A stretch of 64,000 nt of DNA, taken from contig PUNJ01000037.1 in the NCBI GenBank assembly GCA_003551705.1, forward strand, positions 2,605 to 66,604, given 5' to 3'. The DNA comes from Chloroflexota bacterium. Its GTDB lineage: Bacteria > Chloroflexota > Dehalococcoidia > UBA2247 > RBG-13-53-26. Shown piece after piece: positions 471 through 53,623 of the stretch (its first letter is position 1; every line of letters starts with the position of its first letter). A program made the translations under genes and the position numbers. The notes below the pieces were generated by a model. It was not told the origin of the DNA. It worked only from the letters and a program-made list of their open reading frames with translations, and ran no database searches.

Positions 471-3400
471 TCAAGAGAGGGCTGCTTTCCCATCATTGGG
501 GTCCGGTCTCTTTCCCGCCAGCGCCCTATTGACTTCCTTTCTGAGTGAGATTGCATCGAATGGCTTGGTAATATGAGGTACGCCGATCTTTGCCAGGAAA
601 TCTCTGGTATCGGTGCCCATCACATCCCCGGTGATAAAGACTATCTGAGGCATATCCGGGCGTATGTTCCTGATCCTTTCGTGAAGCTCGGCACCACCTA
701 TATCCGGCAACTTGATATCGAGCATAACAAGGGAGTAAGGGCATTCTTCGAGGCGCATAATAGCTTCCCAGGCTGTGGCTGCTGTATCAACCTTGTGTCC
801 GTCAATAGCCAGAGCGCGACTCAGGAACTGCAACACAGACGGCTCGTCATCAACCACCAGGACTCTGGCAGGTTCCACCGATTCAGCACCGGCAGGGTGG
901 GTCTCGATATTATCTACCTCTTCGGCAAGTGAGCAGACTGGCAGTTCTACGACGAAAGTCGTTCCTTTGCCTGGTTGACTGTCCGCATAGATCCTGCCGC
1001 TGTGTTGTGTCACTATGGTGTGGCAGATGCTCAGGCCGAGACCGGTGCCCTGGCCAACCTCCCTTGTTGTGAAAAATGGGTCGAAAATCCGGTACAGGTT
1101 TTCCTGGGGAATACCCGGCCCATCATCCTCTACGGTGACCTTGATCATGCCTTTCTTGCATCCGGTCTTGATTGAGAGGCGTCCCTTGCCATGAGCGAGC
1201 TTCATCTCCGTTTCAGCGTTAATCAGGATGTTTAGAAACAGTTGCTGTAGCTGGCTGCTATCGGCCATGGTGCTCGGAAGATCGGGAGCCAGATGTTTCT
1301 CGACTTCTATCTTGTTGGTTTCCATTTCGTAGGCACGCAGATTCAGGTTTGTCTTAATGATGTCATTGATGTCTACCTGACGACGTTCGGGCTTCTGTTG
1401 CCTGGCGAAAGTCAGCAGACCTCTGACAATGCCGGCCACCCTTTGCGCACTCTCATTGATAATTTCAACCTCGGTACGAACATCATCCGGGAGTTCTCGC
1501 TGCATCAGCAATTGGGTAAACCCTACTACTCCCGTCAGAGGATTATTGATCTCGTGAGCGATGCCAGCTGCCATCATGCCTACGGTAGCAAGCCTGCTGG
1601 CAAGATGTGCTTTCTGCTCAAGTTCCTTTCGTTCAGCTTCTGATCGTTTGCGCTCTGTGATGTCCTGTAGCTGTACAAGATAGCCCTTCAGGGGCCCGCC
1701 TTCATGCAAGGTTAGTGGCGTTATCAGGGCATCTATATATAACCCCGTAGCCCGATCTTCCGTCCCGGTAATCCGCCTGCTCTCAATGATCAGTTCCGAC
1801 CTGGCTATCTCGCCTCGTTGAAGCTTGTTCTTGACCTGTTGCGGGATATTCGGGTCTTCAAAGAGTCCGTACCACTTGCCCAGGACTACACCGTCTTCTG
1901 CTTCCGAGAGGCCGAACATGCTGAAACAAGCCTTATTGGCGCCTATGAGCTTGCCTCGGGCATCTCGTATCTGAATCCCTATGGGAGACTCCGCATAGAT
2001 GCTCCGAAACCATCGCTCCTGTTCCTCCAAGGCCTTTTCCGTGTGCTTGAGTTCGGTTACGTCCATGAAGTTTCCAAGGGTGGCTCTTCTGCCCTGGTAT
2101 AGGATGGAGGTGACCGTTTCCATCACCCATTTGACCTTGCCGCTCTTAGTGACATATCGAAATTCGTACGGTGCGGCTCTCTTGCCCTTCAGCATTCTGA
2201 CGGCGTTTTTCTTGACCAGAGTTCGATCATCGGGGTAGACAACGCTCATGGACTCCATGCCGATAAGAGAACCATGGCGATAGCCCAGTAGTCTTTCGAA
2301 ACTCGCGTTGATGAAACGGAACTTGCCATCCTGCAAGATGTAAAGGCCTATTGGTGAACTGGTGAAGGCTGTGCTCAAGAGACCCTCTGCTTGTTTTCGC
2401 TGGGTTATGTCCCGAGCTACGCCCACCATGCCCGCAGTCCGGCCTTCGCTGTCGCGCAAGAACGATACCCGGACCTCTGCCCAGACGGTGTGTCCGTCTT
2501 TGTGGTTCATTTCCAACTCAATGATCCGGCCCTTGAGATGCCCTGGATAGTTGGCGAGATCCGTGCCAGCAAGGCCTGCCCGAGCCATCTGGACAGAGGC
2601 AGGGGTCAGGCTCTCTTCCATGGTGCGGTCCATGGCTTCTTCAACGCTGTAGCCGAGAAGCCGTGTAATGGATGGACTCAGGTAAGTGGGGCGCAGGGTT
2701 TCCAAATCAATCACCCATAGTACGTCGCCAACATTATCAGCCAGCAAGCGGTATCGTCTCTCGCTTTCCTGCAGGGCCTCCTCAGCTTTCTTGAGTTCAT
2801 GCACATCGATGAGGTTGCCGAGTGCAGCTCTTCTGCCCTGATACACTATTGACGTTACCGTTCCCATAGCCCACCTGAAGGAACCGTCCGCGGTCAGGTA
2901 CCTGAATTCGTACGGCGACGATGCTTGGCCTTTCAGCATGCTTATCGCCGCATCCCTGACCCCCTTCCTGTCGCTTGCCATCACGAATCTGGTCGGGTCC
3001 TTGCCCAGCAATTCATGTTGTCTCAGACCCAGAAACCTCTCCAGGCTGGAATTGACGGCGCGCAATTTACCGTCTTGGACTATATACATGCCTATGGGAG
3101 AACTCAGAAATGACGTTCTTAGAAGCTCTTCAGCCTGGTGTCTCTCGGTGACATCGCGTACCAGACCCAATATGGCCGGTCGGTCATCGTAGTTAATCAG
3201 GCCAGCGGAGACCTCAACCTCCTTAATGCTCTCATCTTTGCACAGTAACTGTGTTTCGAAGACAGGCGGCACCCTCTGTCCCGACATCCTTGTCTCGTAA
3301 AGCGTGGCTATCAGTTCTCTGCTGTCAGGGGCCACGAGTCCTGTAAAATTAGCGAGGCCGGTGATCTCTTCCGTTGAATAGCCTGAAATTTGAGCAAAAG

Positions 3401-39445: not shown

Positions 39446-40060
39446 CTAGGCCATTTCCAAGTGACAGGTATCGTTAAAGGTTATCAGCCGGTTTTCCTTT
39501 GGAGTCAGTTCAAGTATGCTGATGGAGCCGGGGTCCTGCCTAACACGCATAAGCTGTCCGGCTTCAATACTGAGAGCCCTGCAGATGATCATAAGGCAAA
39601 CAAACAGGTGTGACACGACAATGACCGTTTGATCGCCGTGCTTCTTCATGATCTCCTCGATCTGGGCCCAGGCCCGCGATTGCACTTTCTCCAGTGATTC
39701 CCCTCCGGGCAAGCAAAGTGTAACGTCGCCGGCGGCCCATTTATTCCAGAAGTCTCCATGCTTCTGGATGGTCTCGGTTCCCGTCAAGCCTTCCAGGTCA
39801 CCGGCATCTATCTCCACAAATTCCGGAACGATGAACAAGTCGATGCCGCAGTGGCGTGAAATGGGCTCGGCTGTGGCCAGGGCACGTTTGAGCGGACTGG
39901 AGTATACCGCGCTGGCTCCCAGGCCGGTAAGAGCTCGGGCTATAAGCTCAGCCTGGTCAAGGCCTGCCTGGCTCAGTATGATATCGCTGCGAGATCCCTG
40001 AATGATACCATCACGGTTGTAGCTGGTTTCACCGTGTCTTATCAGAACGAGTTTCATCAT
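39446..40060 (-). CDS. Histidine phosphatase family (CobC/GpmB-like)
   Basis: RHGET, SSPLKRA, EIDAG, GGES, VSH. Confidence 0.92.
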   Translation of the reverse strand: MMKLVLIRHGETSYNRDGIIQGSRSDIILSQAGLDQAELIARALTGLGASAVYSSPLKRALATAEPISRHCGIDLFIVPEFVEIDAGDLEGLTGTETIQKHGDFWNKWAAGDVTLCLPGGESLEKVQSRAWAQIEEIMKKHGDQTVIVVSHLFVCLMIICRALSIEAGQLMRVRQDPGSISILELTPKENRLITFNDTCHLEMA

Positions 40061-43757: not shown

Positions 43758-44372
43758 ATGCAGGTAAAGCGAGTGGAAACCGCGCCTTTCGGCACAAACG
43801 CCTATGTGATTATTTGTGAAGAGGAACATGAAAGCATTCTGATCGACGCTCCGGGCGAACCAGAGTTGCTCATGGCTGCTCTTGAAGGCACCAGGCCCAA
43901 GTATATCGTTATGACCCACGGACATGTAGACCATACTTTGGCTTTGAAGGATATAGCGACGACCTTGTCATTGCCGGTGGCCGTGCATTCCTCGGATGCA
44001 CCTTCATTGTCGGTGCCCGCCGCAGTCATGCTTGAAGACGGCGATATACTGGAGTTGGGAAAGGTCGATATCAGGGTCCTTCATACCCCGGGACACACAC
44101 CGGGCAGCATTTGTCTGCTGGCTGGAGGGCATTTGATCGCCGGCGACACCCTATTCCCCGGCGGGCCGGGCAAGACTGGTTCACCTTCAGATCTGCGGCT
44201 TTTGATTGATTCGCTGCGGTCGAAGATCATGGACCTGCCCGACGACACGGTAGTGCACCCCGGGCATGGAGAAGGCACCATTCTGGGCAAAGAGAAAGAG
44301 CAGTTCGCTAACTTCTTGTCGAGATCGCACGCTTCCGATCTCTGTGGTGATGTCCTCTGGCTGGAGCATTGA
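43758..44372 (+). CDS. MBL-fold metallo-hydrolase (glyoxalase II/YcbL-like)
   Basis: THGHVDH, HTPGHTPG, GDTLF, PGHG. Confidence 0.92.
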   Translation: MQVKRVETAPFGTNAYVIICEEEHESILIDAPGEPELLMAALEGTRPKYIVMTHGHVDHTLALKDIATTLSLPVAVHSSDAPSLSVPAAVMLEDGDILELGKVDIRVLHTPGHTPGSICLLAGGHLIAGDTLFPGGPGKTGSPSDLRLLIDSLRSKIMDLPDDTVVHPGHGEGTILGKEKEQFANFLSRSHASDLCGDVLWLEH

Positions 44373-44381
44373 ACGGAATCC

Positions 44382-45188
44382 CTACCACAGGTACTCTACC
44401 CGGTGAAACGCTTCACCGAATTCAAAGCCCTTGTTGCTAGCCATTTGCCTGTGCCGGTCTTCCAACCACTGCTGCATTTGATAGCCGTGAAACTCTGTAT
44501 CAAGGTTGCCCACCTGGCTCTTATGGCAGCGCAAGGCAGCCAGTTTGACTTCGAAGGTCTTGGTGATATCAATGCAGAAGTCGGGATCCTCAGAGGCCCA
44601 AAGCAGCGCCTCATCTACTTTGTGGGGTTGTAGCCCCTCCTCCAGCAGATCGGGGTAGGCCAGATGGTCTCTGGCAAAGGGGAAGATGGCGTCGAGGACC
44701 ACGGTCCCGGTTATGCGGTGATCGCGATGCCATAAATAGCGCCGGTACGGGTCTGCCGTGACTACCACAGTGGGCCGGTAGGTCCTTATCAGGCGGACAA
44801 GCAGTTTTCGGAAATCGGGAGTATCCTCCAGGGACTGGTCAGCATAGCCCAGAAAGACCACTTCCCTGACACCCAACATCCGGGCGGCTTGCAGCTGCTC
44901 CTCCTCGCGGATCCGGGCCAGATCATGAGGCTCAAGAGTCAGGTCCCTCGTTCCTTTGTCGCCGTTCGTACAGACCACATAGACAACCTGCCGGGCTTCA
45001 CGAGACCATTTGGCTACCGTGCCAGCGGCCCCGAACTCTGAATCGTCGGGGTGGGGGCTTATAACCATGGCGTAAAACGGTTCAGGAGGAGAGGGGGGCA
45101 GTCCTTCCGAGGCCGCGACCGTAAATGGTTCATTGGGTGTTTCTAAACCTTCTCCGGGAGATGGGCTGTACAATTTATAAGAACGCAC
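44382..45188 (-). CDS. PIG-L family deacetylase (MshB/BshB-like)
   Basis: SPHPDD, TNGDKG, REEE, HRDH, KLAALRCHKSQ. Confidence 0.88.
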   Translation of the reverse strand: MRSYKLYSPSPGEGLETPNEPFTVAASEGLPPSPPEPFYAMVISPHPDDSEFGAAGTVAKWSREARQVVYVVCTNGDKGTRDLTLEPHDLARIREEEQLQAARMLGVREVVFLGYADQSLEDTPDFRKLLVRLIRTYRPTVVVTADPYRRYLWHRDHRITGTVVLDAIFPFARDHLAYPDLLEEGLQPHKVDEALLWASEDPDFCIDITKTFEVKLAALRCHKSQVGNLDTEFHGYQMQQWLEDRHRQMASNKGFEFGEAFHRVEYLW

Positions 45189-45284
45189 CGTGGCAGGCCT
45201 CCTGATCCATCATTTATTATCTCTGGCCAAATTGTATTGCATGGAGCAAGCTGTTACAATTCCTTGCCGTTGACAGGTCTAATC

Positions 45285-46250
45285 ATGAACGAATCGATAT
45301 ACTTAGTCCGCAACTATCATAATAGTGATTTTGACGAGTATGTACGTTTGCAGGAGGAAGCCGAGCACCACGACAGAGTAGGCAGGTGTCTGGGCCGGAG
45401 ATTCCTGCTCGAACAGCTACATCGCCCCGGTTTCGTTCCCGAAGAACATTTGCTGGTAGCCGCCGGTAGCCAGCGGCTACTAGCCTATATTGATATTACT
45501 CTGGAAGAGGGCGTATCCAGGGTCGTTTTGGACTGCCTTGTGCACCCGGCCCATCGTAGAATGGGCCTGGGCACCAGACTTTTCAATCATGCCCTCGATT
45601 TTGCCAGGAAACTTGAGATTGGGTGGGCACAGGCAAATGTAGCCGATACCAATCACGGAGCCAGGATGTTCCTGGAGAACCTGGATTTCACTCCCGTCCG
45701 TGTCTATCTGGATATGCTACTGGGACCAGGTAGCGAAGTCTCTGTTCTCGGCGATACAGTAAATATTACGTTGCAGCATTTGCAGCCAGGGCAGGAAGAA
45801 GTCCTGATGCAAGTTCAGAATTGCGCTTTTCAAGAAAGCTGGGGATATAACCCGAATACCGTAATGACCATTTCACGCAGGCTGGAAATGAGTGACACTT
45901 CTCCGGAGCATGTGATACTGGCCGTATCAGGCGCGGAGGTGATGGGCTATTGCTGGACCACCGAAGTGACTGAGGAAATCGCCGACAAGAAAGGGCGGAT
46001 CTACATGCTAGGGGTGTGCCCGCGTTTCCGGGATAAGGGTCTCGGACGACATCTCCTCTTGGCCGGGCTCAGATATCTCAATAAGAGAGGTGTCAAGTCC
46101 GTTGAATTGACGGTCGATAGCCAGAACACGTCCGCGCGAAGGCTATATGATTCGGCAGGTTTCAAAATCGTCTCGGCAAGTTTGTGGTTTGAGAGGGATT
46201 TGAGAGGAGACGGGGTGCCTACACCGGCAAACCACTCGCCGGGCCGATGA
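45285..46250 (+). CDS. Tandem-GNAT acetyltransferase, MshD-like
   Basis: Two GNAT lobes (VHPAHRRMGLG; GYCWT..GRIYMLGVCPRFRDKGLG..LTVDSQN..ARRLY) resembling mycothiol synthase. Confidence 0.75.
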   Translation: MNESIYLVRNYHNSDFDEYVRLQEEAEHHDRVGRCLGRRFLLEQLHRPGFVPEEHLLVAAGSQRLLAYIDITLEEGVSRVVLDCLVHPAHRRMGLGTRLFNHALDFARKLEIGWAQANVADTNHGARMFLENLDFTPVRVYLDMLLGPGSEVSVLGDTVNITLQHLQPGQEEVLMQVQNCAFQESWGYNPNTVMTISRRLEMSDTSPEHVILAVSGAEVMGYCWTTEVTEEIADKKGRIYMLGVCPRFRDKGLGRHLLLAGLRYLNKRGVKSVELTVDSQNTSARRLYDSAGFKIVSASLWFERDLRGDGVPTPANHSPGR

Positions 46251-47439
46251 AAAGCATCTGCGTGTATAGCTGTTCCACAGACCTGGCGACGTTAGGCCAT
46301 CCAAACCTGGTGACCGAATCTCGAATCGAAGGTTCAAAGCCAGGCGACGACAATATGCGGTCGATGCCATCGGCAATCTCCGCCGGGTCATGGCCCACAA
46401 TGTAGCCGGTCCCTGGGGCGATGATATCCTCCATTCCACCCACTCTGGTGGCCACCACCGGTGTACCGCAGGCCAGGGACTCGAGGGCTACCAGGCCGAA
46501 GCTCTCATATAACGATGGCACGACACAGACGTCAGCGACTGCGTAGTACTGCGGTAAGTCCTCCTGCTTGACTCTGCCGCAGAAGTGTACTCTGTCCCCG
46601 ATTCCCAATTGCTCCGAAAGCTTGCCCAATCTTTGCATTTCCGGCTGACTTTGATCATCTCCACCCACAACCAGCAGGCAAATATCCCGGTTGCCCCGCA
46701 ACTGGGCGATCGCCTGGAAAAGATGGTCTATACCTTTAAGCCGTTCGATACGGCCCACGTAAAGGGCCACGCGGCGCCCGTTCAGCTCCAATTGTGTTTT
46801 GGCAGCCTGCTTGTTTGCCGGCATGAAAAGGTCCAGATTAACCCCGCAGGGAATGACACTGATGCGTCCGGGTGATGCTTCGTAGTAATCTTCCAGTTGC
46901 TGCTTCTCCCGTGCCGTTGCAGCTATTATGCGGTTGCATTCCTTCGCTAAACCCCGCTCTGTCTCTGTACGCAGTTCCGGCTCATCGTCGCATGCAGCCA
47001 CGGCGTTCTTGACGGCGCCCAGGGTGTGGAACATCGTTACGTGTGGCACCCGCCACCAGGGCCTAATAAGGTGTGCTGCCCAACCCGAGAGCCAGTAGTG
47101 GCTGTGGACAAGATCATACTCGAGGTCATTCGCCTTGCGAAATGATTCCAGTGCACATGTGAAATCGGCCAGGTACGAATAGACCACCAGCTTGTGTATG
47201 GCGCCCACCTCTCCTGCTCTCAGGTGGATGAGACGGGCTCCTTCGCCAATATGGACCACTTCCGGGTCGCGGGCGTCATGTGCGCGTGTATAAACGTCTA
47301 TCGTGTGCCCAAGGCGGCCCAACTGGGCTGCAAGCTCCCTGATATACACGTTCATTCCACCGGTATCACGGCTGCCCAGATCCCCCATGGGGCAGCTATG
47401 AGCGCTTATCATGGCTATTCGCAATTGCATGTCGGGCAT
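46219..47439 (-). CDS. GT4 glycosyltransferase, MshA-like
   Basis: AMISAHSCP..DTGGMNVY, HSHYWLSG, HTLGAVKN, ESFGLVALE: the MshA-subfamily signature. Confidence 0.85.
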   Translation of the reverse strand: MPDMQLRIAMISAHSCPMGDLGSRDTGGMNVYIRELAAQLGRLGHTIDVYTRAHDARDPEVVHIGEGARLIHLRAGEVGAIHKLVVYSYLADFTCALESFRKANDLEYDLVHSHYWLSGWAAHLIRPWWRVPHVTMFHTLGAVKNAVAACDDEPELRTETERGLAKECNRIIAATAREKQQLEDYYEASPGRISVIPCGVNLDLFMPANKQAAKTQLELNGRRVALYVGRIERLKGIDHLFQAIAQLRGNRDICLLVVGGDDQSQPEMQRLGKLSEQLGIGDRVHFCGRVKQEDLPQYYAVADVCVVPSLYESFGLVALESLACGTPVVATRVGGMEDIIAPGTGYIVGHDPAEIADGIDRILSSPGFEPSIRDSVTRFGWPNVARSVEQLYTQMLFIGPASGLPV

Positions 47440-47442
47440 GAT

Positions 47443-48486
47443 TCAGATGCCTCTCAGGCCTATGTGGCAACTGAAGATTGGAATCTCCATGGCGCCAAGC
47501 CTATATTTGTATATCTCGTCCCCCTTAAGGAAATCGAACGCCTTCTTGCCGCCCAGAATACTCTCCCTGATGCACAGTATCTTCGAAATCAGACCAACGC
47601 TGAGAGCGCTGTAACCAGGATCATACCCGCTGTTATACAAGTAGGTGGTATCCCCGTATTCGAAAAACATCACCGCGGCTACCGGCACTTCGTCTAGATT
47701 GAGCAGGCCAAAACGCACCAGGCCCATCTCGGACATGTTACATGTGAGACTCCGGAAGAAGGACTCCATTTGGGCTGTCATGAAGGCGTACTTTTGTGGG
47801 CGGCTCCGGCGGTGCAATTCCAGAAACAGATCAAGGGCTTCTGCCAGGTCGTCGCTTTTGGACGCTACGCGATAGTCAAGGCTGCCTGCCTCCTTAATGC
47901 GCCGCAACTTCCTTCTTACCTCACGACACTGTTTTGGTTCAAGACCGTCCAGGTATTCTTCCCACGAGGACGGCAAATCAAGGGGGAGAGATACGTCATC
48001 GATCCGGCAAGAACCGGTCACACCGGGTGTCTTGCATATACCGGCAAAGTTTTGCATCAGGGTTGAGTCCGGCCGGAGGCTTTCCATACGCAAGCTGTTC
48101 ACTTCTGTGGACATGAGATACTGGACCAGGATCTCGAAGAAGATACCTTCTTTGCCGGGCTCAATGACGAAATCCAGATAATCACAGACATCCGCGTCGC
48201 CCAGAAAAAGGGCATGAGCCCCTGACATTCGTAGAGGGGCGATGCCGATAATGTCTTCGTCTTCTCTGATGGCCAGGAGACGGATCTCGGCAGGTTTCGT
48301 GAAATGTCTGCACCAGGCGTCAATCCAGCCGGGAAGAATGAACACGTGTGCCCAGTTAAGGTCCTGCCGGGCTCCATATATGGTGTGAAGACCAGACAGG
48401 CTTTCCGCTGTGACGGAGTAGCTGGTACCGCAAAGTGTAGTCCGGTACAGGGTGCCGGTCTGTAGGGGGTACAGGGGACTAACCAA
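47443..48486 (-). CDS. CelD/BcsL-type GNAT (Acetyltransf_6)
   Basis: GIAPL, CDYLD, LPSSWEEYL..RRKLRR, YLYNSGYDP, FDFLKGDEIYKYRLG; TTG start at 48486 with GGAGG SD overlapping the upstream stop. Confidence 0.85.
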   Translation of the reverse strand: MVSPLYPLQTGTLYRTTLCGTSYSVTAESLSGLHTIYGARQDLNWAHVFILPGWIDAWCRHFTKPAEIRLLAIREDEDIIGIAPLRMSGAHALFLGDADVCDYLDFVIEPGKEGIFFEILVQYLMSTEVNSLRMESLRPDSTLMQNFAGICKTPGVTGSCRIDDVSLPLDLPSSWEEYLDGLEPKQCREVRRKLRRIKEAGSLDYRVASKSDDLAEALDLFLELHRRSRPQKYAFMTAQMESFFRSLTCNMSEMGLVRFGLLNLDEVPVAAVMFFEYGDTTYLYNSGYDPGYSALSVGLISKILCIRESILGGKKAFDFLKGDEIYKYRLGAMEIPIFSCHIGLRGI

Positions 48487-49069
48487 TAATGATTTCCTCC
48501 AAGGAGCGTTTAGGCACATGATGTACGTCCGATTCATCTCGCCAATATTTCACATCATGCGACGGCTCGACCGCATCGATAACCACGGTTTCCTTGGGCT
48601 TACCTAACGCCAAGACCAGGAGTATTTCGAAACGGTCTGGGATCTGCAGAGCGCGACGGAGGCCTTCCCTGTCTATGGATGCCATAACGCAGCCTCCAAG
48701 GCCGGCTTCCACCGCGCCAAGGAGAATGCTCTGGCAGGCAATACCGTGATCACAAGCGAAGCTGGGAGATATTTCTTTGTCACCAAGGATGATGATATAA
48801 GCCGATGGCCTTTCTCCCGCCTCGGGTCCCGCCCAGTCTTCCAGGTAAGCTGCCCAAGATAGATGAGAAAAAATGGAATTATTCTTTTCGGGCTCGCAAC
48901 TGAGGATATATTTCAAAGGCTGTCTATTGCCTGCGGAGGCCGATAATCTGGCAAGGTCCACCATGTCTCGGAGGACTTCTATCTCCACAGGACTCTCCTG
49001 GTGGAACCGTCTGTAACTACGGTTGCGTACCACCAAGTGCCTGACGATACTCCCTCTTTCACTATACAT
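48479..49069 (-). CDS. Nitroreductase family protein
   Basis: RNRSYRRF, SAGNRQPL, DHGIACQ, GLGGC, HVPKR. Confidence 0.9.
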   Translation of the reverse strand: MYSERGSIVRHLVVRNRSYRRFHQESPVEIEVLRDMVDLARLSASAGNRQPLKYILSCEPEKNNSIFSHLSWAAYLEDWAGPEAGERPSAYIIILGDKEISPSFACDHGIACQSILLGAVEAGLGGCVMASIDREGLRRALQIPDRFEILLVLALGKPKETVVIDAVEPSHDVKYWRDESDVHHVPKRSLEEIIIG

Positions 49070-49453: not shown

Positions 49454-51514
49454 ATGCCATCAGCCAAGAAGTTACTCAGTCCTGTGAGAATAGGCAACAT
49501 GGAGCTACGGAATCGTACTGTAATGTCTCCCATGACAACGCAGTATGCCAATCAGGACGAGAGCGTATCGGATAAGCTCAGGGAATACTACGTAGCTCGT
49601 TCCAGGGGTGGGGTCGGACTCATTACAGTTGAGGTCTGCACTGTAGACAAACCTCACCGTTATCAACCGCTATCTGTCGGCCTATGGGATGATAGCTTCA
49701 TCAGTGGCCATAAGGAATTGACCAAGGCCATACATGCTCATGGTGCTAAAGCAGTGCCACAGATATCCCATCCTGGGCCGGAATCGCTGGCTCCATTCTA
49801 CTATAAGGTTCCCAGCGTAGGCCCTTCAGAGGTCAAGTCCTGCATGACGCAGCAAGTCTGCCGGGAATTGAGCCTGGAGGAAATTCAGACGGTCATCGAG
49901 CAATACGGAGAGGCTGCCCGGAGGGCCAGGGAGGCCGGATATGACGGCATGGAATTACATGCAGCACACAGCTACATGCTGGCCGGGTCTTTTCTTTCGC
50001 CCCTTCGAAACAAGCGTACCGATGCTTACAATGGTTCTACCTTGGAAGGCCGTCTGAAGTTTGTATTGGAAGTTGTCCGGAGGATGAAGGCCAAGGCGGG
50101 TGAAGATTTTCCTCTTATCATTCGTATCTCCGGTGATGAAAGGGAGCCGGGTGGTCGCGACGTTGTTGATTCGCAGAAGATGGCCCCGATATTGGTTGAG
50201 GCGGGCGTTGACGCTTTTCATGTCTCGGGTGGTGTTATCGACCGGTACACCTCGGAAATCATCGCCGGTTCAAGCCATCCCAACGGGCTCAATGTTCCCG
50301 CTGCGGCTGCTATCAAGAAGGTCGTAAACGTACCGGTAATGGTGGTCGGCCGTATACATGACCCTTTGTACGCTGAAGAGATACTTCAGAAGGAAGAAGC
50401 TGATCTGATAGTGATGGGAAGACCAATGCTGGCTGATCCCGACCTTCCCCGTAAGGTGGCTGAGGGAAGCTTCGAGGATATACGCCAGTGCATTTCCTGT
50501 CAAAACTGCTTTGATTCATTGAATGATTTTGAGATGATGAGCTGTGCCGTCAACGCCATTACCGGACGCGAAGATGAATATAAGATGGACAAGACGGCCA
50601 AGCCCAAAAAAGTCATGGTAGTAGGCGCAGGTCCAGCGGGTATGGAAGCTGCCAGAGTGGCCGCCCTGCGCGGTCATCATGTATGGCTATATGACAGACA
50701 GCCCCTTTTGGGTGGTTCCCTCATGTTTGCCACAACGGTGCATCCTGACAATGACCCCTTCCTGGCTTACATAACTACCGCAGTCAGAAAGTTGCCCATT
50801 ACCCGCAGGCTGGGTACGGCGGTCACTCCTGCCATCGTCGAGGAGGCAAAACCTGACGCTGTCATAGTGGCGGTCGGTCCTGAATTGACCACTCCCCGCA
50901 TACCAGGGGACCAGCAACGGAATGTGTTCAGTGCTGCCGATTTCAAGCAGATGCTGGGCGGACGCTTGCAAGGTCCTGCGGCGGCAAAGCTGCCTATCTG
51001 GCAGAGACTGGGGTTGAGGCTGGGTATGCCGATTATTCGGCGTTTTCTGACCCCTGCACGTATCCGCCGTTTGACGCGGTACTGGATGCCGCTAGGAAAG
51101 AATGTAACCGTCATTGGCGGCGACTTGGCGGCCAGTGAGTTGGCTCTATTCGTTGGCGAAAGAGGCCGCAAGGTTACGCTGCTTACTCATGAAGCAAAAC
51201 TTGCTCCCGAGATAGGTTCCAAGCGCCGTAGTGAAATGTTGAAACATCTTGATCAGGCAGGAGTGATTGTACACAAGGAGGCGAAGTGTGAGGGAATAAC
51301 CCCTGAAGGTGTCACGTTAGTGAACAAAGAGGGTGCAAGAGAGACAGTCAGGTCCGATACGGTGGTAATTGCGGGCGAAGTCTCCCCGAATCTGGACCTG
51401 TACCATGCAATCGAGGAGAAAGTGCCCGAGGTGTACCTGGCTGGCGATTGTCGCGAACTAGGATTGATACGCAAAGCAACGGCCAATGCCATGGAAGTTG
51501 CTCACAAAATCTAA
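49454..51514 (+). CDS. OYE/4Fe-4S/FAD oxidoreductase (FadH/BaiCD-like), copy 1
   Basis: RGGVGLI, ELHAAHSYM, CISCQNC..C, VVGAGPAG. Confidence 0.9.
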   Translation: MPSAKKLLSPVRIGNMELRNRTVMSPMTTQYANQDESVSDKLREYYVARSRGGVGLITVEVCTVDKPHRYQPLSVGLWDDSFISGHKELTKAIHAHGAKAVPQISHPGPESLAPFYYKVPSVGPSEVKSCMTQQVCRELSLEEIQTVIEQYGEAARRAREAGYDGMELHAAHSYMLAGSFLSPLRNKRTDAYNGSTLEGRLKFVLEVVRRMKAKAGEDFPLIIRISGDEREPGGRDVVDSQKMAPILVEAGVDAFHVSGGVIDRYTSEIIAGSSHPNGLNVPAAAAIKKVVNVPVMVVGRIHDPLYAEEILQKEEADLIVMGRPMLADPDLPRKVAEGSFEDIRQCISCQNCFDSLNDFEMMSCAVNAITGREDEYKMDKTAKPKKVMVVGAGPAGMEAARVAALRGHHVWLYDRQPLLGGSLMFATTVHPDNDPFLAYITTAVRKLPITRRLGTAVTPAIVEEAKPDAVIVAVGPELTTPRIPGDQQRNVFSAADFKQMLGGRLQGPAAAKLPIWQRLGLRLGMPIIRRFLTPARIRRLTRYWMPLGKNVTVIGGDLAASELALFVGERGRKVTLLTHEAKLAPEIGSKRRSEMLKHLDQAGVIVHKEAKCEGITPEGVTLVNKEGARETVRSDTVVIAGEVSPNLDLYHAIEEKVPEVYLAGDCRELGLIRKATANAMEVAHKI

Positions 51515-51619
51515 GTTTAGATGTGCCAGATTCCTAAACTACCTGGTGCCATTCGGGCTTGTCCTGGCAGGACCTTCCGACGAGCTTGGGGTGGAACGGG
51601 GGGATTACCAAGGAGGTTT

Positions 51620-53623
51620 ATGAAATCATTGGAGAAGCTTTTCAGCCCCATCAGAATCGGCTCCATGGAAATGCGTAACCGGATTGCCATGGCGCCGATG
51701 GCTACGAATTACACGAACGAAGATGGCTCAATCTCAGACCAGATAAGAGATTATCTTGTCGCTCGTGCCAAGGGTGGTGCGGGACTTATCATACTTGAGG
51801 TCACCACAATAGATGGTACCTTCCCCTACGTGCCAAATACCATTGGGCTCTGGGACGACAAGCTGATTCCCAGCATGAAGGGGCTTGCTGATGCAATACA
51901 TGCCCAAGGGGCTAGAGTGGTCCCCCAGGTATCACACCCGGGACCTGAATCCGTTTGCTTCCTCTATGGCGTACAGGCAGTAGGACCTTCGATTATCATG
52001 TGTCCCAGCCACAAGCAGTCTTGCCGTGAACTTGATATCGGCGAGATCAAGGGCATCGTGGACCAGTTTGCCGAGGCCGCCCGAAGGGCCAAGGAGGCCG
52101 GTTGTGATGGGATCGAGCTTCATGCAGCGCACAGCTATATGCTGCTAGGCTCATTCTTATCGTCACTTAGGAACAGGAGAGGTGACGCTTATGGCGGCTC
52201 AATTGAGAACAGGCTCCGGCTGCCCATAGAGGTTTTAGAGGCCATTCGTGCCAAAGTCGGTCCTGAATTTCCCATTATCATGCGACTTTCCGGTGACGAA
52301 TTGACGCCCGGGGGTCGCGACATTGACGAAACGCTCTACATTGCTCCCATCCTGGCCGGGGCAGGCGTCAGCGCGTTTCACATCTCCAGTGGTACCTTTC
52401 CCTTCATGTCATGGCGTATTCTGCCGCCGACGGGGACACCCAGGGGCCTCAATGTGCGCTACGCGGCTGCAATCAAGGAGGTTGTGGATGTACCGGTACT
52501 TGCCGTGGGCAGGATAAACGATCCCAGATATGCGGAGCACGTACTGCAGCGTAATCACGCCGATGTCATTGTCATGGGAAGAGCACTATTGGCCGATCCC
52601 GAGTTGCCCAACAAGGCGGCTGAGGGCAGGTTCGATGATATAACCCCCTGCATTGGTTGCGGCCTCGGCTGCATAGCTGGCAGGGAGGGCGGCAGGCCCA
52701 TGACTTGCGTGATGAACCCGAGCGTAGGCCGCGAAGCAGAAATGGTCCTCAAACCGGCGGCCAAGGCCAAGAAGGTCATGGTAGCCGGCGGCGGGCCGGC
52801 CGGATTGGAGGCTGCCAGGGTGGCCTGCCAGCGTGGCCATCAGGTAACCCTGTTTGAAAAGAGCGGTAAACTGGGAGGTCAGTTGAACCTTGCTGCGGTC
52901 CCGCCCATGAAACAGGAGATTACCAAGGCTACGTGCTTTCTCTCCATGCAGGCCGAGAGAAATGGAGTCGAGCTCAGGCTAAATACGGCGGTCACACCGG
53001 AGCTTGTAAGAGAGATAAAACCCGATGCACTGATTATAGCCACGGGCGGTGAGGCCCTGGTTCCCAATATCCCTGGCATTAGTGGGTCCAAGGTGGTATC
53101 GGCGCACGATATCCTGTCAGGGAATGTGGTCGTGGATTCCTGCAAAGTGCTGGTACTGGGTGGCGGCATGGTTGGGCTGGAAGTCGCCGAGTTCCTGGCT
53201 GATCGAGGCGATAATCCCACGGTGGGCTGTACTGACGTAACCGTCCTGGAAATGCTGGACAACGTGGGCATGGACATGGTACCGGAGGGACGGTTCCTGC
53301 TCATGCAAAGGCTGCGAGAGAACGGTGTCAAGATACACACTTCCACGAAGGTCAAAGAGGTGCTGGAAGACGGTGTGCGTACAGTGAATACCATCAAGGA
53401 ACTGCAGCCCGACTGGACCATAATTTATAAGGAAGGGGACCAAGTGGGCGAGATCCGGGGTATGGACTCCATAGTTGTCGCCCTGGGGGCGAGTTCGGTT
53501 GAGGAATTGAGCAGCAAGCTGGATGGCAGTGTGGCTGAGGTTTACGTAATTGGTGATGCCAAACAGCCGAGAAAGGCATTGGAGGCAGTGGCTGAAGGCG
53601 CTGAAGCGGGCAGGCATATCTAG
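51620..53623 (+). CDS. OYE/4Fe-4S/FAD oxidoreductase (FadH/BaiCD-like), copy 2
   Basis: KGGAGLI, ELHAAHSYM, CIGCGLGC..C, AGGGPAG, GGGMVG; AAGGAGG SD before ATG 51620. Confidence 0.9.
   Translation: MKSLEKLFSPIRIGSMEMRNRIAMAPMATNYTNEDGSISDQIRDYLVARAKGGAGLIILEVTTIDGTFPYVPNTIGLWDDKLIPSMKGLADAIHAQGARVVPQVSHPGPESVCFLYGVQAVGPSIIMCPSHKQSCRELDIGEIKGIVDQFAEAARRAKEAGCDGIELHAAHSYMLLGSFLSSLRNRRGDAYGGSIENRLRLPIEVLEAIRAKVGPEFPIIMRLSGDELTPGGRDIDETLYIAPILAGAGVSAFHISSGTFPFMSWRILPPTGTPRGLNVRYAAAIKEVVDVPVLAVGRINDPRYAEHVLQRNHADVIVMGRALLADPELPNKAAEGRFDDITPCIGCGLGCIAGREGGRPMTCVMNPSVGREAEMVLKPAAKAKKVMVAGGGPAGLEAARVACQRGHQVTLFEKSGKLGGQLNLAAVPPMKQEITKATCFLSMQAERNGVELRLNTAVTPELVREIKPDALIIATGGEALVPNIPGISGSKVVSAHDILSGNVVVDSCKVLVLGGGMVGLEVAEFLADRGDNPTVGCTDVTVLEMLDNVGMDMVPEGRFLLMQRLRENGVKIHTSTKVKEVLEDGVRTVNTIKELQPDWTIIYKEGDQVGEIRGMDSIVVALGASSVEELSSKLDGSVAEVYVIGDAKQPRKALEAVAEGAEAGRHI

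Follow-up and report, generated by a model that had tools for sequence, protein, structure and literature searches.

The analysis presented here concerns six adjacent genes (43758-49069) in a 64,000-nucleotide stretch of contig PUNJ01000037.1 from a Chloroflexota bacterium of the class Dehalococcoidia, the whole of which is called the window. At the centre of the group stands a double-GNAT protein carrying the database name 'CelD/BcsL, cellulose biosynthesis', which groups by predicted fold and by sequence profile with the FemABX, MprF and Sbb17 aminoacyl-tRNA transferases and away from the GNATs that depend on acetyl-coenzyme A (CoA), a placement that the evidence below supports. Together with an MshA-like family-4 glycosyltransferase (GT4) and a PIG-L deacetylase this Fem-like protein forms a triad that is the core of the cluster across Chloroflexota. 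We lean, with reserve, towards the reading that the cluster makes an N-aminoacyl-glucosamine (GlcN) conjugate, N-acetylated in one sub-clade, on an aglycone derived from a phosphorylated acceptor, probably inositol, and that the Fem-like enzyme would form the amide from aminoacyl-tRNA. Cells owe their redox chemistry to low-molecular-weight thiols (glutathione, mycothiol, bacillithiol), and Dehalococcoidia include organohalide-respiring bacteria used in bioremediation. Literature searches have found neither a published account of such a tRNA-dependent route in Chloroflexota nor a report of a low-molecular-weight thiol in Dehalococcoidia. A commentary mentions that Chloroflexus aurantiacus, like some other anaerobes, contains thiols still to be identified (PMC6336425).

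Gene cluster and its conservation in Chloroflexota

The original prediction had described the six open reading frames (ORFs) as a mycothiol-like set outside Actinobacteria, and each of them matches the family that was named for it:

43758-44372, plus strand: metallo-beta-lactamase (MBL)-fold hydrolase of the YcbL/GloC, type-II glyoxalase II kind (Lactamase_B 75 bits; GSH_gloB 79 bits, cut-off 200.8)
44382-45188, minus strand: PIG-L/LmbE-family N-deacetylase (PF02585 116 bits, threshold 28.2; BshB1 113 bits, cut-off 182.5; MshB 46 bits, cut-off 224)
45237-46250, plus strand: MshD-like tandem GNAT (TIGR03448 110.6 bits, model positions 10-290 of 294, cut-off 163.1)
46219-47439, minus strand: MshA-like GT4 (TIGR03449 338.3 bits, cut-off 462.5; next family 134 bits)
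47443-48486 (alternatively to 48537), minus strand: Fem-like double-GNAT protein, 'CelD/BcsL, cellulose biosynthesis' (PF13480 95 bits; FemAB_like E 0.005, below threshold)
48479-49069, minus strand: nitroreductase-family flavoprotein (PF00881 64.5 bits)

All three Msh-like proteins (MshA-, MshB- and MshD-type) stay below the curated family cut-offs, which for the tandem GNAT means likeness to MshD and not membership of its family. The tight coupling claimed for the last three genes is borne out, as the Fem-like stop lies 3 nt before the GT4 start and the Fem-like gene overlaps the nitroreductase stop by 8 nt. Translation of the Fem-like gene most likely begins at the TTG at 48486, preceded at 9 nt by a GGAGG that falls within the 3' end of the nitroreductase gene, with the ATG codons at 48519 and 48537 as alternatives; the true start of the MshD-like protein may be an internal ATG near 45285. 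No tRNA gene has been found in the window.

Conservation of the neighbourhood has been followed in a sample of 401 Chloroflexota genomes (the phylum sample), 46 of which are Dehalococcoidia (the class); kinship among the genomes makes the samples non-independent, and six genomes marked as unpublished (G227, G145, G344, G272, G038 and G173) enter into the counts for the phylum. Fem-like homologs occur in 158 of the 401. At every one of the 29 loci with 1.5-kb flanks the Fem-like gene is followed immediately, and in the same orientation, by the GT4 gene, after which a PIG-L fragment comes in 18 of them. Among 20 loci of 20 kb, the Fem-like and GT4 genes are adjacent in 17 and PIG-L comes directly after in 12, and the three loci that lack the GT4 gene hold more distant GNAT homologs (30-36% identity). 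When the ORFs of 19 neighbourhoods have been clustered, only the Fem-like (19/19), GT4 (18/19) and PIG-L (15/19) families have recurred widely, and no transporter, flippase or membrane-protein family has been found to recur in the neighbourhoods.

A closer set consists of the 80 nearest named Dehalococcoidia loci from metagenome-assembled genomes (MAGs), which have been found with a 12-sequence alignment and encode Fem-like proteins 43-52% identical to that of the window. The counts per gene refer to the 76 of 80 loci with room for GT4 and to the 58 in which the downstream stretch reaches 3.4 kb or more: in 70 of the 76 the Fem-like gene has GT4 no farther than 300 nt downstream, and in 4 more at 320-750 nt, and the 58 longer loci hold GT4 in 56, PIG-L in 48, MshD-like in 42 and MBL in 38 cases. 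The exact gene order and orientation of the window is repeated in 33 related loci. Chance clustering has been ruled out by the linkage counts (29/29 and 70/76), and the linkage of the CelD/BcsL-type GNAT to the MshA-like GT4, on which the original prediction had made itself depend, is tight and widespread. The sub-clade of the window within this class extends the triad to five genes by adding the MshD-like and MBL genes. GT4 neighbourhoods that lack the Fem-like gene, and likewise the MshC-like neighbourhoods treated below, show no adjacent PIG-L, MshD-like or MBL gene, the genes there being scattered.

Of the predicted mycothiol-like set, these five genes have stood, whereas the nitroreductase has not. 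As a pathway member it has been rejected, since just 2 of 70 related loci, and none of the 20 loci of 20 kb, have it upstream of the Fem-like gene; it is a local addition outside the conserved cluster, co-transcribed and translationally coupled in the window. Divergent from it lie tandem FadH/old yellow enzyme (OYE)-type Fe-S flavoenzyme genes (49454-51514, 686 aa, and 51521-53623, 700 aa), the first of which, the one scanned, has its best NCBIfam models in BaiCD-like and mycofactocin OYE_2-like families, below cut-off. A 40%-identical OYE-type homolog is also divergent from the Fem-like gene in genome G105 (L033:10537-12384) and in 1 of the 80 MAG loci.

Some further features of individual loci have been recorded. 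In small complete genomes (L035, L036 and L039-L041) the triad is followed directly after PIG-L by tRNA-Thr, tRNA-Tyr and tRNA-Thr genes, and these by ORFs of 400, 83, 177, 140, 237, 179 and 126 aa, a succession that, judged on size, is like that of the usual tuf-secE-nusG-rplKAJL cluster. Because of this run the tRNAs have been read as housekeeping synteny and set aside as a clue to the amino acid. In a single genome (G210) the Fem-like/GT4 pair is immediately preceded by a gene (L049:10750-11286) for a regulator of the Rrf2 family, whose members often respond to redox, Fe-S or cysteine status. Ten of the closest 80 loci (L077, L089, L097, L124, L126, L127, L129 and L135-L137), with Fem-like proteins 46-50% identical to that of the window, are assigned by their MAG labels to other phyla or orders (Pseudomonadota, Planctomycetaceae, Spirochaetota, Thermodesulfobacteriota, Aminicenantes, Syntrophobacterales, Desulfobacterales and delta proteobacterium), which could reflect mis-binning, mislabelling or transfer.

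Kinship of the Fem-like protein with aminoacyl-tRNA transferases

An AlphaFold2 (AF2) model of the Fem-like protein, built from 36 homologs, has reached a predicted local distance difference test score (pLDDT) of 95.2 and a predicted template-modelling score (pTM) of 0.91, and contains two GNAT lobes (residues ~20-170 and 203-343) joined by a linking helix (184-200). Comparison of this model with 48,161 PDB representatives has placed aminoacyl-tRNA transferases on top, namely S. aureus FemA (Z 21.4) and S. aureus FemX (Z 21.3), and then Sbb17, an aminoacyl-tRNA-dependent peptide synthase bound to streptothrisamine (Z 20.4, root-mean-square deviation (rmsd) 3.5 Å, 274 residues), W. viridescens FemX (Z 20.2), L-PGS (Z 19.2) and MprF (Z 18.2). 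All matches with a Z score of at least 18 are aminoacyl-tRNA transferases or one DUF2156-like protein, whereas the acetyl-CoA-dependent tandem GNATs remain at Z ≤15.6 with an rmsd of 5.6 Å or more, among them the glucosamine N-acetyltransferase 5KF1 (Z 14.9) and MshD (Z 13.2). Foldseek has given the same ranking, with Fem-type proteins ahead of acetyl-CoA GNATs, so that the suggested resemblance of 47443-48486 to FemX has been recovered as a predicted FemABX-type fold.

The sequence profiles point the same way. Aligned by hhalign with 20 FemAB (PF02388) proteins of other Chloroflexota, the Fem-like family matches with 97.6% probability (E 3.7e-12) over 271 columns that cover both lobes; against the PDB by sequence the Fem-like profile has returned nothing meaningful (best E-value 0.57). 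The [QR]xxGx[GA] CoA loop does not occur in the Fem-like protein of the window and is unconserved at the beta4-alpha3 position in 36 family members. Over the same number of sequences the inter-lobe helix 184-200 carries a net charge of +2 to +7 (median +5). Near the C-terminus Y326-K327 is invariant in the family, within YKYxLGG, and the FemAB proteins of Chloroflexota hold an invariant F-K within RFKxGxGG.

According to a 2026 review (PMC12945691), GNAT-fold aminoacyl-tRNA transferases are recognised by their double GNAT, by a helix of positive charge that binds tRNA and by a catalytic Lys, the last being K305 in FemX of W. viridescens and K329, beside F328, in DhpH-C. The same review reports that Orf11 aminoacylates the amino sugar streptothrisamine from Gly-tRNA (PMC12945691), which provides a direct precedent for the reaction considered here. 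The Fem-like enzyme is proposed to be the aminoacyl-tRNA-dependent, amide-forming enzyme of the cluster, its tRNA dependence being suggested by the modelled fold and the profile kinship.

Companion enzymes, alternative ligases and the proposed product

The MshA-signature motifs noted earlier in the GT4 (HSCP..GGMNVY, HSHYWLSG and HTLGAVKN) are present in the translation and align with their counterparts in C. glutamicum MshA (CgMshA). Its closest solved proteins are the sucrose-phosphate synthase of T. elongatus (TeSPS, 6KIH; 252 bits) and CgMshA (3C48; 247 bits), while lower scores have been obtained for a BshA structure (66 bits), the BshA model (100), PimB' (~50) and a model of N-acetylglucosamine (GlcNAc)-phosphatidylglycerol synthase (80 bits). 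In a HMMER alignment to 3C48, K83, Y115, T139 and R157 of the GT4 correspond to K78, Y110, T134 and R154 of CgMshA, which are reported to be ligands of inositol phosphate. K83 and R157 align also with R105 and R178 of TeSPS, which bind the acceptor phosphate (PMC7264703), so that a phosphorylated acceptor is indicated, although not inositol specifically. The GT4 would thus probably move GlcNAc from UDP-GlcNAc to such an acceptor, GlcNAc as the donated sugar being suggested by the presence of PIG-L in the operon; for the acceptor, inositol-1-phosphate is the best guess.

The PIG-L protein is nearest, among solved structures, to an archaeal diacetylchitobiose deacetylase (133 bits), then to BshB (62-67) and MshB (33), which fits a GlcNAc-glycoside deacetylase in the role of MshB or BshB that would free the 2-amine. 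The MshD-like protein carries both CoA loops (RRMGLG at residue 107 and RDKGLG at residue 265), has its nearest solved relatives in the Sphaerobacter tandem GNAT 3TT2 (51.8 bits) and, second, M. tuberculosis MshD 2C27 (46.5 bits), and is proposed to act as an acetyl-CoA-dependent N-acetyltransferase of the aminoacyl amine. In the MBL translation the HxHxDH motif is seen; its nearest solved proteins, the short YcbL-type glyoxalase II 7EV5 (90 bits) and the hydroxyacylglutathione hydrolase 2XF4 (88 bits), make it a candidate thioester hydrolase for a product thiol, with other roles, such as that of the missing phosphatase, possible. For the latter step a histidine-phosphatase-family gene (39446-40060, minus strand, PspA/CobC-like, below cut-offs), ~6 kb from GT4, is a candidate GlcNAc-inositol-phosphate phosphatase on thin evidence. 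Homologs of it have been located at L151:4821-5708, L152:9304-10107 and L051:15801-16379, and in two genomes of family f42 that hold neither ligase type they lie 1-1.3 kb from the MshA-like GT4.

A ligase of the known kinds has been sought in the assembly of the window (2.81 Mb, 212 contigs, 94.8% complete), to which all absences from its genome refer. It holds one CysRS-like (cysteinyl-tRNA synthetase) gene, full-length and on another contig, which scores 527.6 bits on CysS (1-465 of 466) and 325.7 on MshC (TIGR03447), and neither an MshC nor a match to BshC has been found there, in agreement with what had been seen in the window; GshA and the GshB ATP-grasp domain have likewise given no match. 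Five further triad genomes, four of them complete single contigs, have one CysRS-like match each, none above the MshC cut-off. The suggested search for inositol-1-phosphate synthase (Ino1) has found the gene in the same genome. There, on contig C198 (L002), Ino1 (931-2040) lies 21 nt before a generic GT4 gene (2062-3177) and after a universal-stress-protein gene, and this second GT4 might use inositol phosphate as well.

For the distribution over the phylum a Fem-like match has been called strong at E ≤ 1e-35, an MshA-like GT4 at E ≤ 1e-80 and an MshC-like match at E ≤ 1e-112. MshC-like matches (377-410 bits) occur in 80 of the 401 genomes, all outside Dehalococcoidia (0 of 46). One example of 388 residues scores 409.8 bits on MshC and 376 on CysS and lacks the C-terminal part of CysRS; two others are 52-59% identical. 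Canonical-type mycothiol-like synthesis may thus exist in other Chloroflexota, as judged from these scores. The MshC-like genes that were inspected (L063-L066, L155 and L156) are truncated CysRS paralogs of ~390-420 aa that score best on MshC, and in genome G171 one lies 400 nt from a gene (L156:8801-10207) for a pyridine-nucleotide-disulfide oxidoreductase of 468 aa, which might act with it as disulfide reductase.

The MshA-like GT4 itself is found in 270 of the 401 genomes, never above the cut-off (maximum 421 bits). It accompanies the MshC-like gene in 74 of 80 genomes and the strong Fem-like gene in 74 of 81, the latter count being partly circular, as the Fem-like threshold was chosen after the GT4-adjacent matches had been seen. 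Strong Fem-like and MshC-like genes meet in only 6 genomes, all with GT4, and Fem-like matches of any strength meet MshC-like ones in 13. Within the class, 24 genomes hold GT4 and Fem-like, none GT4 alone, 5 Fem-like with GT4 below threshold (two of these have a diverged adjacent GT4) and 17 neither. This distribution fits two alternative partners, Fem-like and MshC-like, of one GT4 family. In genome G040, which is also MshC-like-positive, the Fem-like gene appears as two adjacent matches (C3:17390-18284; residues 47-261 and 267-341) and may be a decaying copy.

From the observed gene families, their linkage, the kinship in fold and profile and the absence of known ligases, we infer substrates, tRNA dependence and the order of steps as follows. 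The GT4 would transfer GlcNAc from UDP-GlcNAc onto a phosphorylated acceptor, most likely 1L-myo-inositol-1-phosphate made by Ino1; a putative phosphatase would remove the phosphate, and PIG-L would take off the N-acetyl group. Onto the glucosamine amine freed in this way the Fem-like enzyme would move an aminoacyl group from aminoacyl-tRNA, in place of the ATP-dependent MshC or BshC, and the MshD-like enzyme would then acetylate the new alpha-amine with acetyl-CoA to yield an N-acetyl-aminoacyl-GlcN-(inositol) conjugate. For the amino acid, the analogy with mycothiol makes cysteine, delivered by Cys-tRNA, the first candidate. The further claim that Dehalococcoidia and many other Chloroflexota make a mycothiol-type thiol via Cys-tRNA, with the Fem-type enzyme as a non-orthologous replacement of MshC or BshC, is one we put forward tentatively and with considerable doubt. 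Such a route would yield Cys-GlcN-inositol, with an N-acetyl group added wherever an MshD-like gene occurs, and hence mycothiol or its des-acetyl form. This identity is favoured by the glyoxalase-II-like and MshD-like neighbours, by the lack of any other thiol pathway found and by the largely alternative distribution with respect to the MshC-like gene.

Besides the circularity mentioned above, several observations weigh against this pathway or against its thiol form. The GT4 scores 338.3 bits where the curated MshA cut-off is 462.5 and is equidistant from sucrose-phosphate synthase and MshA. The equation of K327 with the catalytic Lys of the Fem proteins has been made by eye from the motifs ([YF]K..LGG versus FK.G.GG), the hhalign alignment ending at F319-F320, seven residues short. 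PF13480 is annotated as an acetyltransferase family, and the sole named NCBIfam relative of the Fem-like protein, BspF, is a crotonyl transferase (35 bits), so that an acyl-CoA donor remains conceivable. An MshA-like GT4 with neither a strong Fem-like nor an MshC-like gene occurs in 128 genomes, from which the GT4 family probably has several roles; and among the six genomes that combine the partners, three give two GT4 matches, which hints at two products and argues against a simple one-for-one replacement. The MshD-like tandem GNAT has not been found in the complete 1.4-1.9-Mb genomes that carry the triad, nor have the thiol-dependent enzyme families DinB_2 and MDMPI_N given a match in the genome of the window. 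Finally, Ino1 is present in 365 of the 401 phylum genomes, and 9 genomes with a Fem-like match of any strength gave no Ino1 match; with 46 of 46 class genomes also positive, its co-occurrence has been discarded as uninformative about the acceptor.

The donor is the point at which a first competing explanation departs. The double-GNAT protein could be an acyl-CoA- or acyl carrier protein (ACP)-dependent N-acyltransferase that re-acylates glucosamine with a non-acetyl group, in the logic of LpxC/LpxD or NodB/NodA, and gives an N-acyl-GlcN conjugate. PF13480 belongs to the Pfam GNAT acetyltransferase clan, the kinship with BspF agrees with such a donor, and the acetyl-CoA tandem GNATs 5KF1 and MshD are themselves clear structural matches; yet the canonical CoA pyrophosphate loop is missing from the protein and unconserved at the beta4-alpha3 position in the 36 family members, the CoA enzymes superpose at an rmsd above 5.6 Å while the matches from Z 18 upwards are aminoacyl-tRNA transferases or DUF2156-like, and both the FemAB profile match and the conserved basic helix, which fits RNA binding, speak against it, so that we regard re-acylation as unlikely. 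The acceptor has been questioned in a similar manner. PIG-L/GT4 pairs also start glycosylphosphatidylinositol (GPI)-type anchors, and the triad might modify a membrane or envelope glycoconjugate, for instance a GlcN-phosphatidylinositol-like compound or a GlcN-lipid that is then aminoacylated in the manner of MprF. The Z scores of 18-19 for MprF-type lipid aminoacylases and the database name 'CelD/BcsL, cellulose biosynthesis' are in line with this, and the phosphate recognised by the GT4 could be that of a lipid head group. Against it stand the 338 bits of the GT4 on the MshA model and its 247-252 bits with soluble-acceptor enzymes, as compared with ~50 for PimB' and 80 for GlcNAc-phosphatidylglycerol synthase, the lack of any recurring transporter, flippase or membrane-protein family nearby, and the MshD-like and glyoxalase-II-like companions, which fit a soluble small molecule; a lipid or envelope product appears quite improbable to us.

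A different question is whether the same pathway might deliver an amino acid other than cysteine and end in a non-thiol product, such as a compatible solute, a signalling or a storage compound, with another role for the MBL protein, e.g., that of the phosphatase. The amino acids that GNAT-fold aminoacyl-tRNA transferases are known to employ are Gly, Ala, Ser, Leu and Lys, and none of the enzymes named in the passages cited from PMC12945691 uses Cys. Distinct products are suggested by the genomes that combine MshC-like with Fem-like and GT4 genes, of which three hold two copies of GT4, and the missing DinB_2 and MDMPI_N matches agree with a non-thiol product as well. Conversely, the nearest solved relatives of the MBL protein, which is kept in 38 of 58 loci, are thiol-ester-hydrolysing glyoxalases II, the second-best solved relative of the MshD-like protein is mycothiol synthase, no gene for another known low-molecular-weight thiol has been found in the genome of the window, and the Fem-like and MshC-like genes accompany one GT4 family largely as alternatives to each other. 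We therefore treat the non-thiol outcome as possible but doubtful.

Should the Fem-like enzyme move an amino acid from tRNA to a glucosamine glycoside, as we propose, tRNA-dependent chemistry would extend beyond walls, lipids and antibiotics into the synthesis of core cofactors or solutes, and it would be explained how these genomes cope without MshC or BshC. A Cys-tRNA route, if real, would bring a tRNA-dependent step into redox-cofactor synthesis for the first time and would reveal which thiol a major anaerobic lineage makes; should the product be no thiol, aminoacyl-GlcN-inositol would still add a new metabolite class. The proposal lends itself to direct testing, as the proteins are small, their compact folds are predicted with high confidence, and the triad is present in complete 1.4-1.9-Mb genomes of the class.

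Comparison with known systems

The mycothiol pathway of Actinobacteria (Ino1, MshA, the phosphatase MshA2, MshB, MshC and MshD) shares with the proposed pathway the same chemical logic for four steps, to which correspond here the GT4 with MshA motifs and phosphate-binding residues, the PIG-L protein, the tandem GNAT that matches the MshD model over its full length, and Ino1. It differs in that no MshC has been found and a Fem-type double-GNAT gene stands in the operon instead, in that the deacetylase is nearer to BshB and to the archaeal chitobiose deacetylases than to MshB, and in that genes scattered in Actinobacteria are clustered here. The bacillithiol pathway (BshA, BshB and BshC) resembles it through the succession of GT4, PIG-L deacetylase and cysteine addition, and the deacetylase scores best on BshB1 (113 bits). 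The GT4, however, reaches 100 bits on BshA and 338 on MshA, BshC has not been found, and an acetylation step, absent from bacillithiol synthesis, is suggested here by the MshD-like gene.

With the C-terminal domain of the MprF-type aminoacyl-phosphatidylglycerol synthases the Fem-like enzyme shares the fold (L-PGS Z 19.2, MprF Z 18.2) and the proposed aminoacyl-tRNA donor; it carries no flippase or membrane domain, and its partner genes point to a sugar amine and not to a lipid hydroxyl as acceptor. From FemABX and Sbb17 it is separated by an identity of 12-15%, by its membership of PF13480 instead of PF02388, and by its place in a core-genome operon with GT4 and deacetylase genes, as opposed to peptidoglycan or antibiotic synthesis. 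The class Dehalococcoidia includes wall-less bacteria, and FemAB (PF02388) at E ≤ 1e-20 has given no match in 17 class genomes sampled, G000 included. The likeness to FemABX, Orf11 and Sbb17 nevertheless comprises the double-GNAT fold, the basic inter-lobe helix, the missing CoA loop and a C-terminal aromatic-Lys motif that looks alike, and Sbb17 attaches its aminoacyl group to an amino-sugar amine, the type of reaction that we propose for the Fem-like enzyme.

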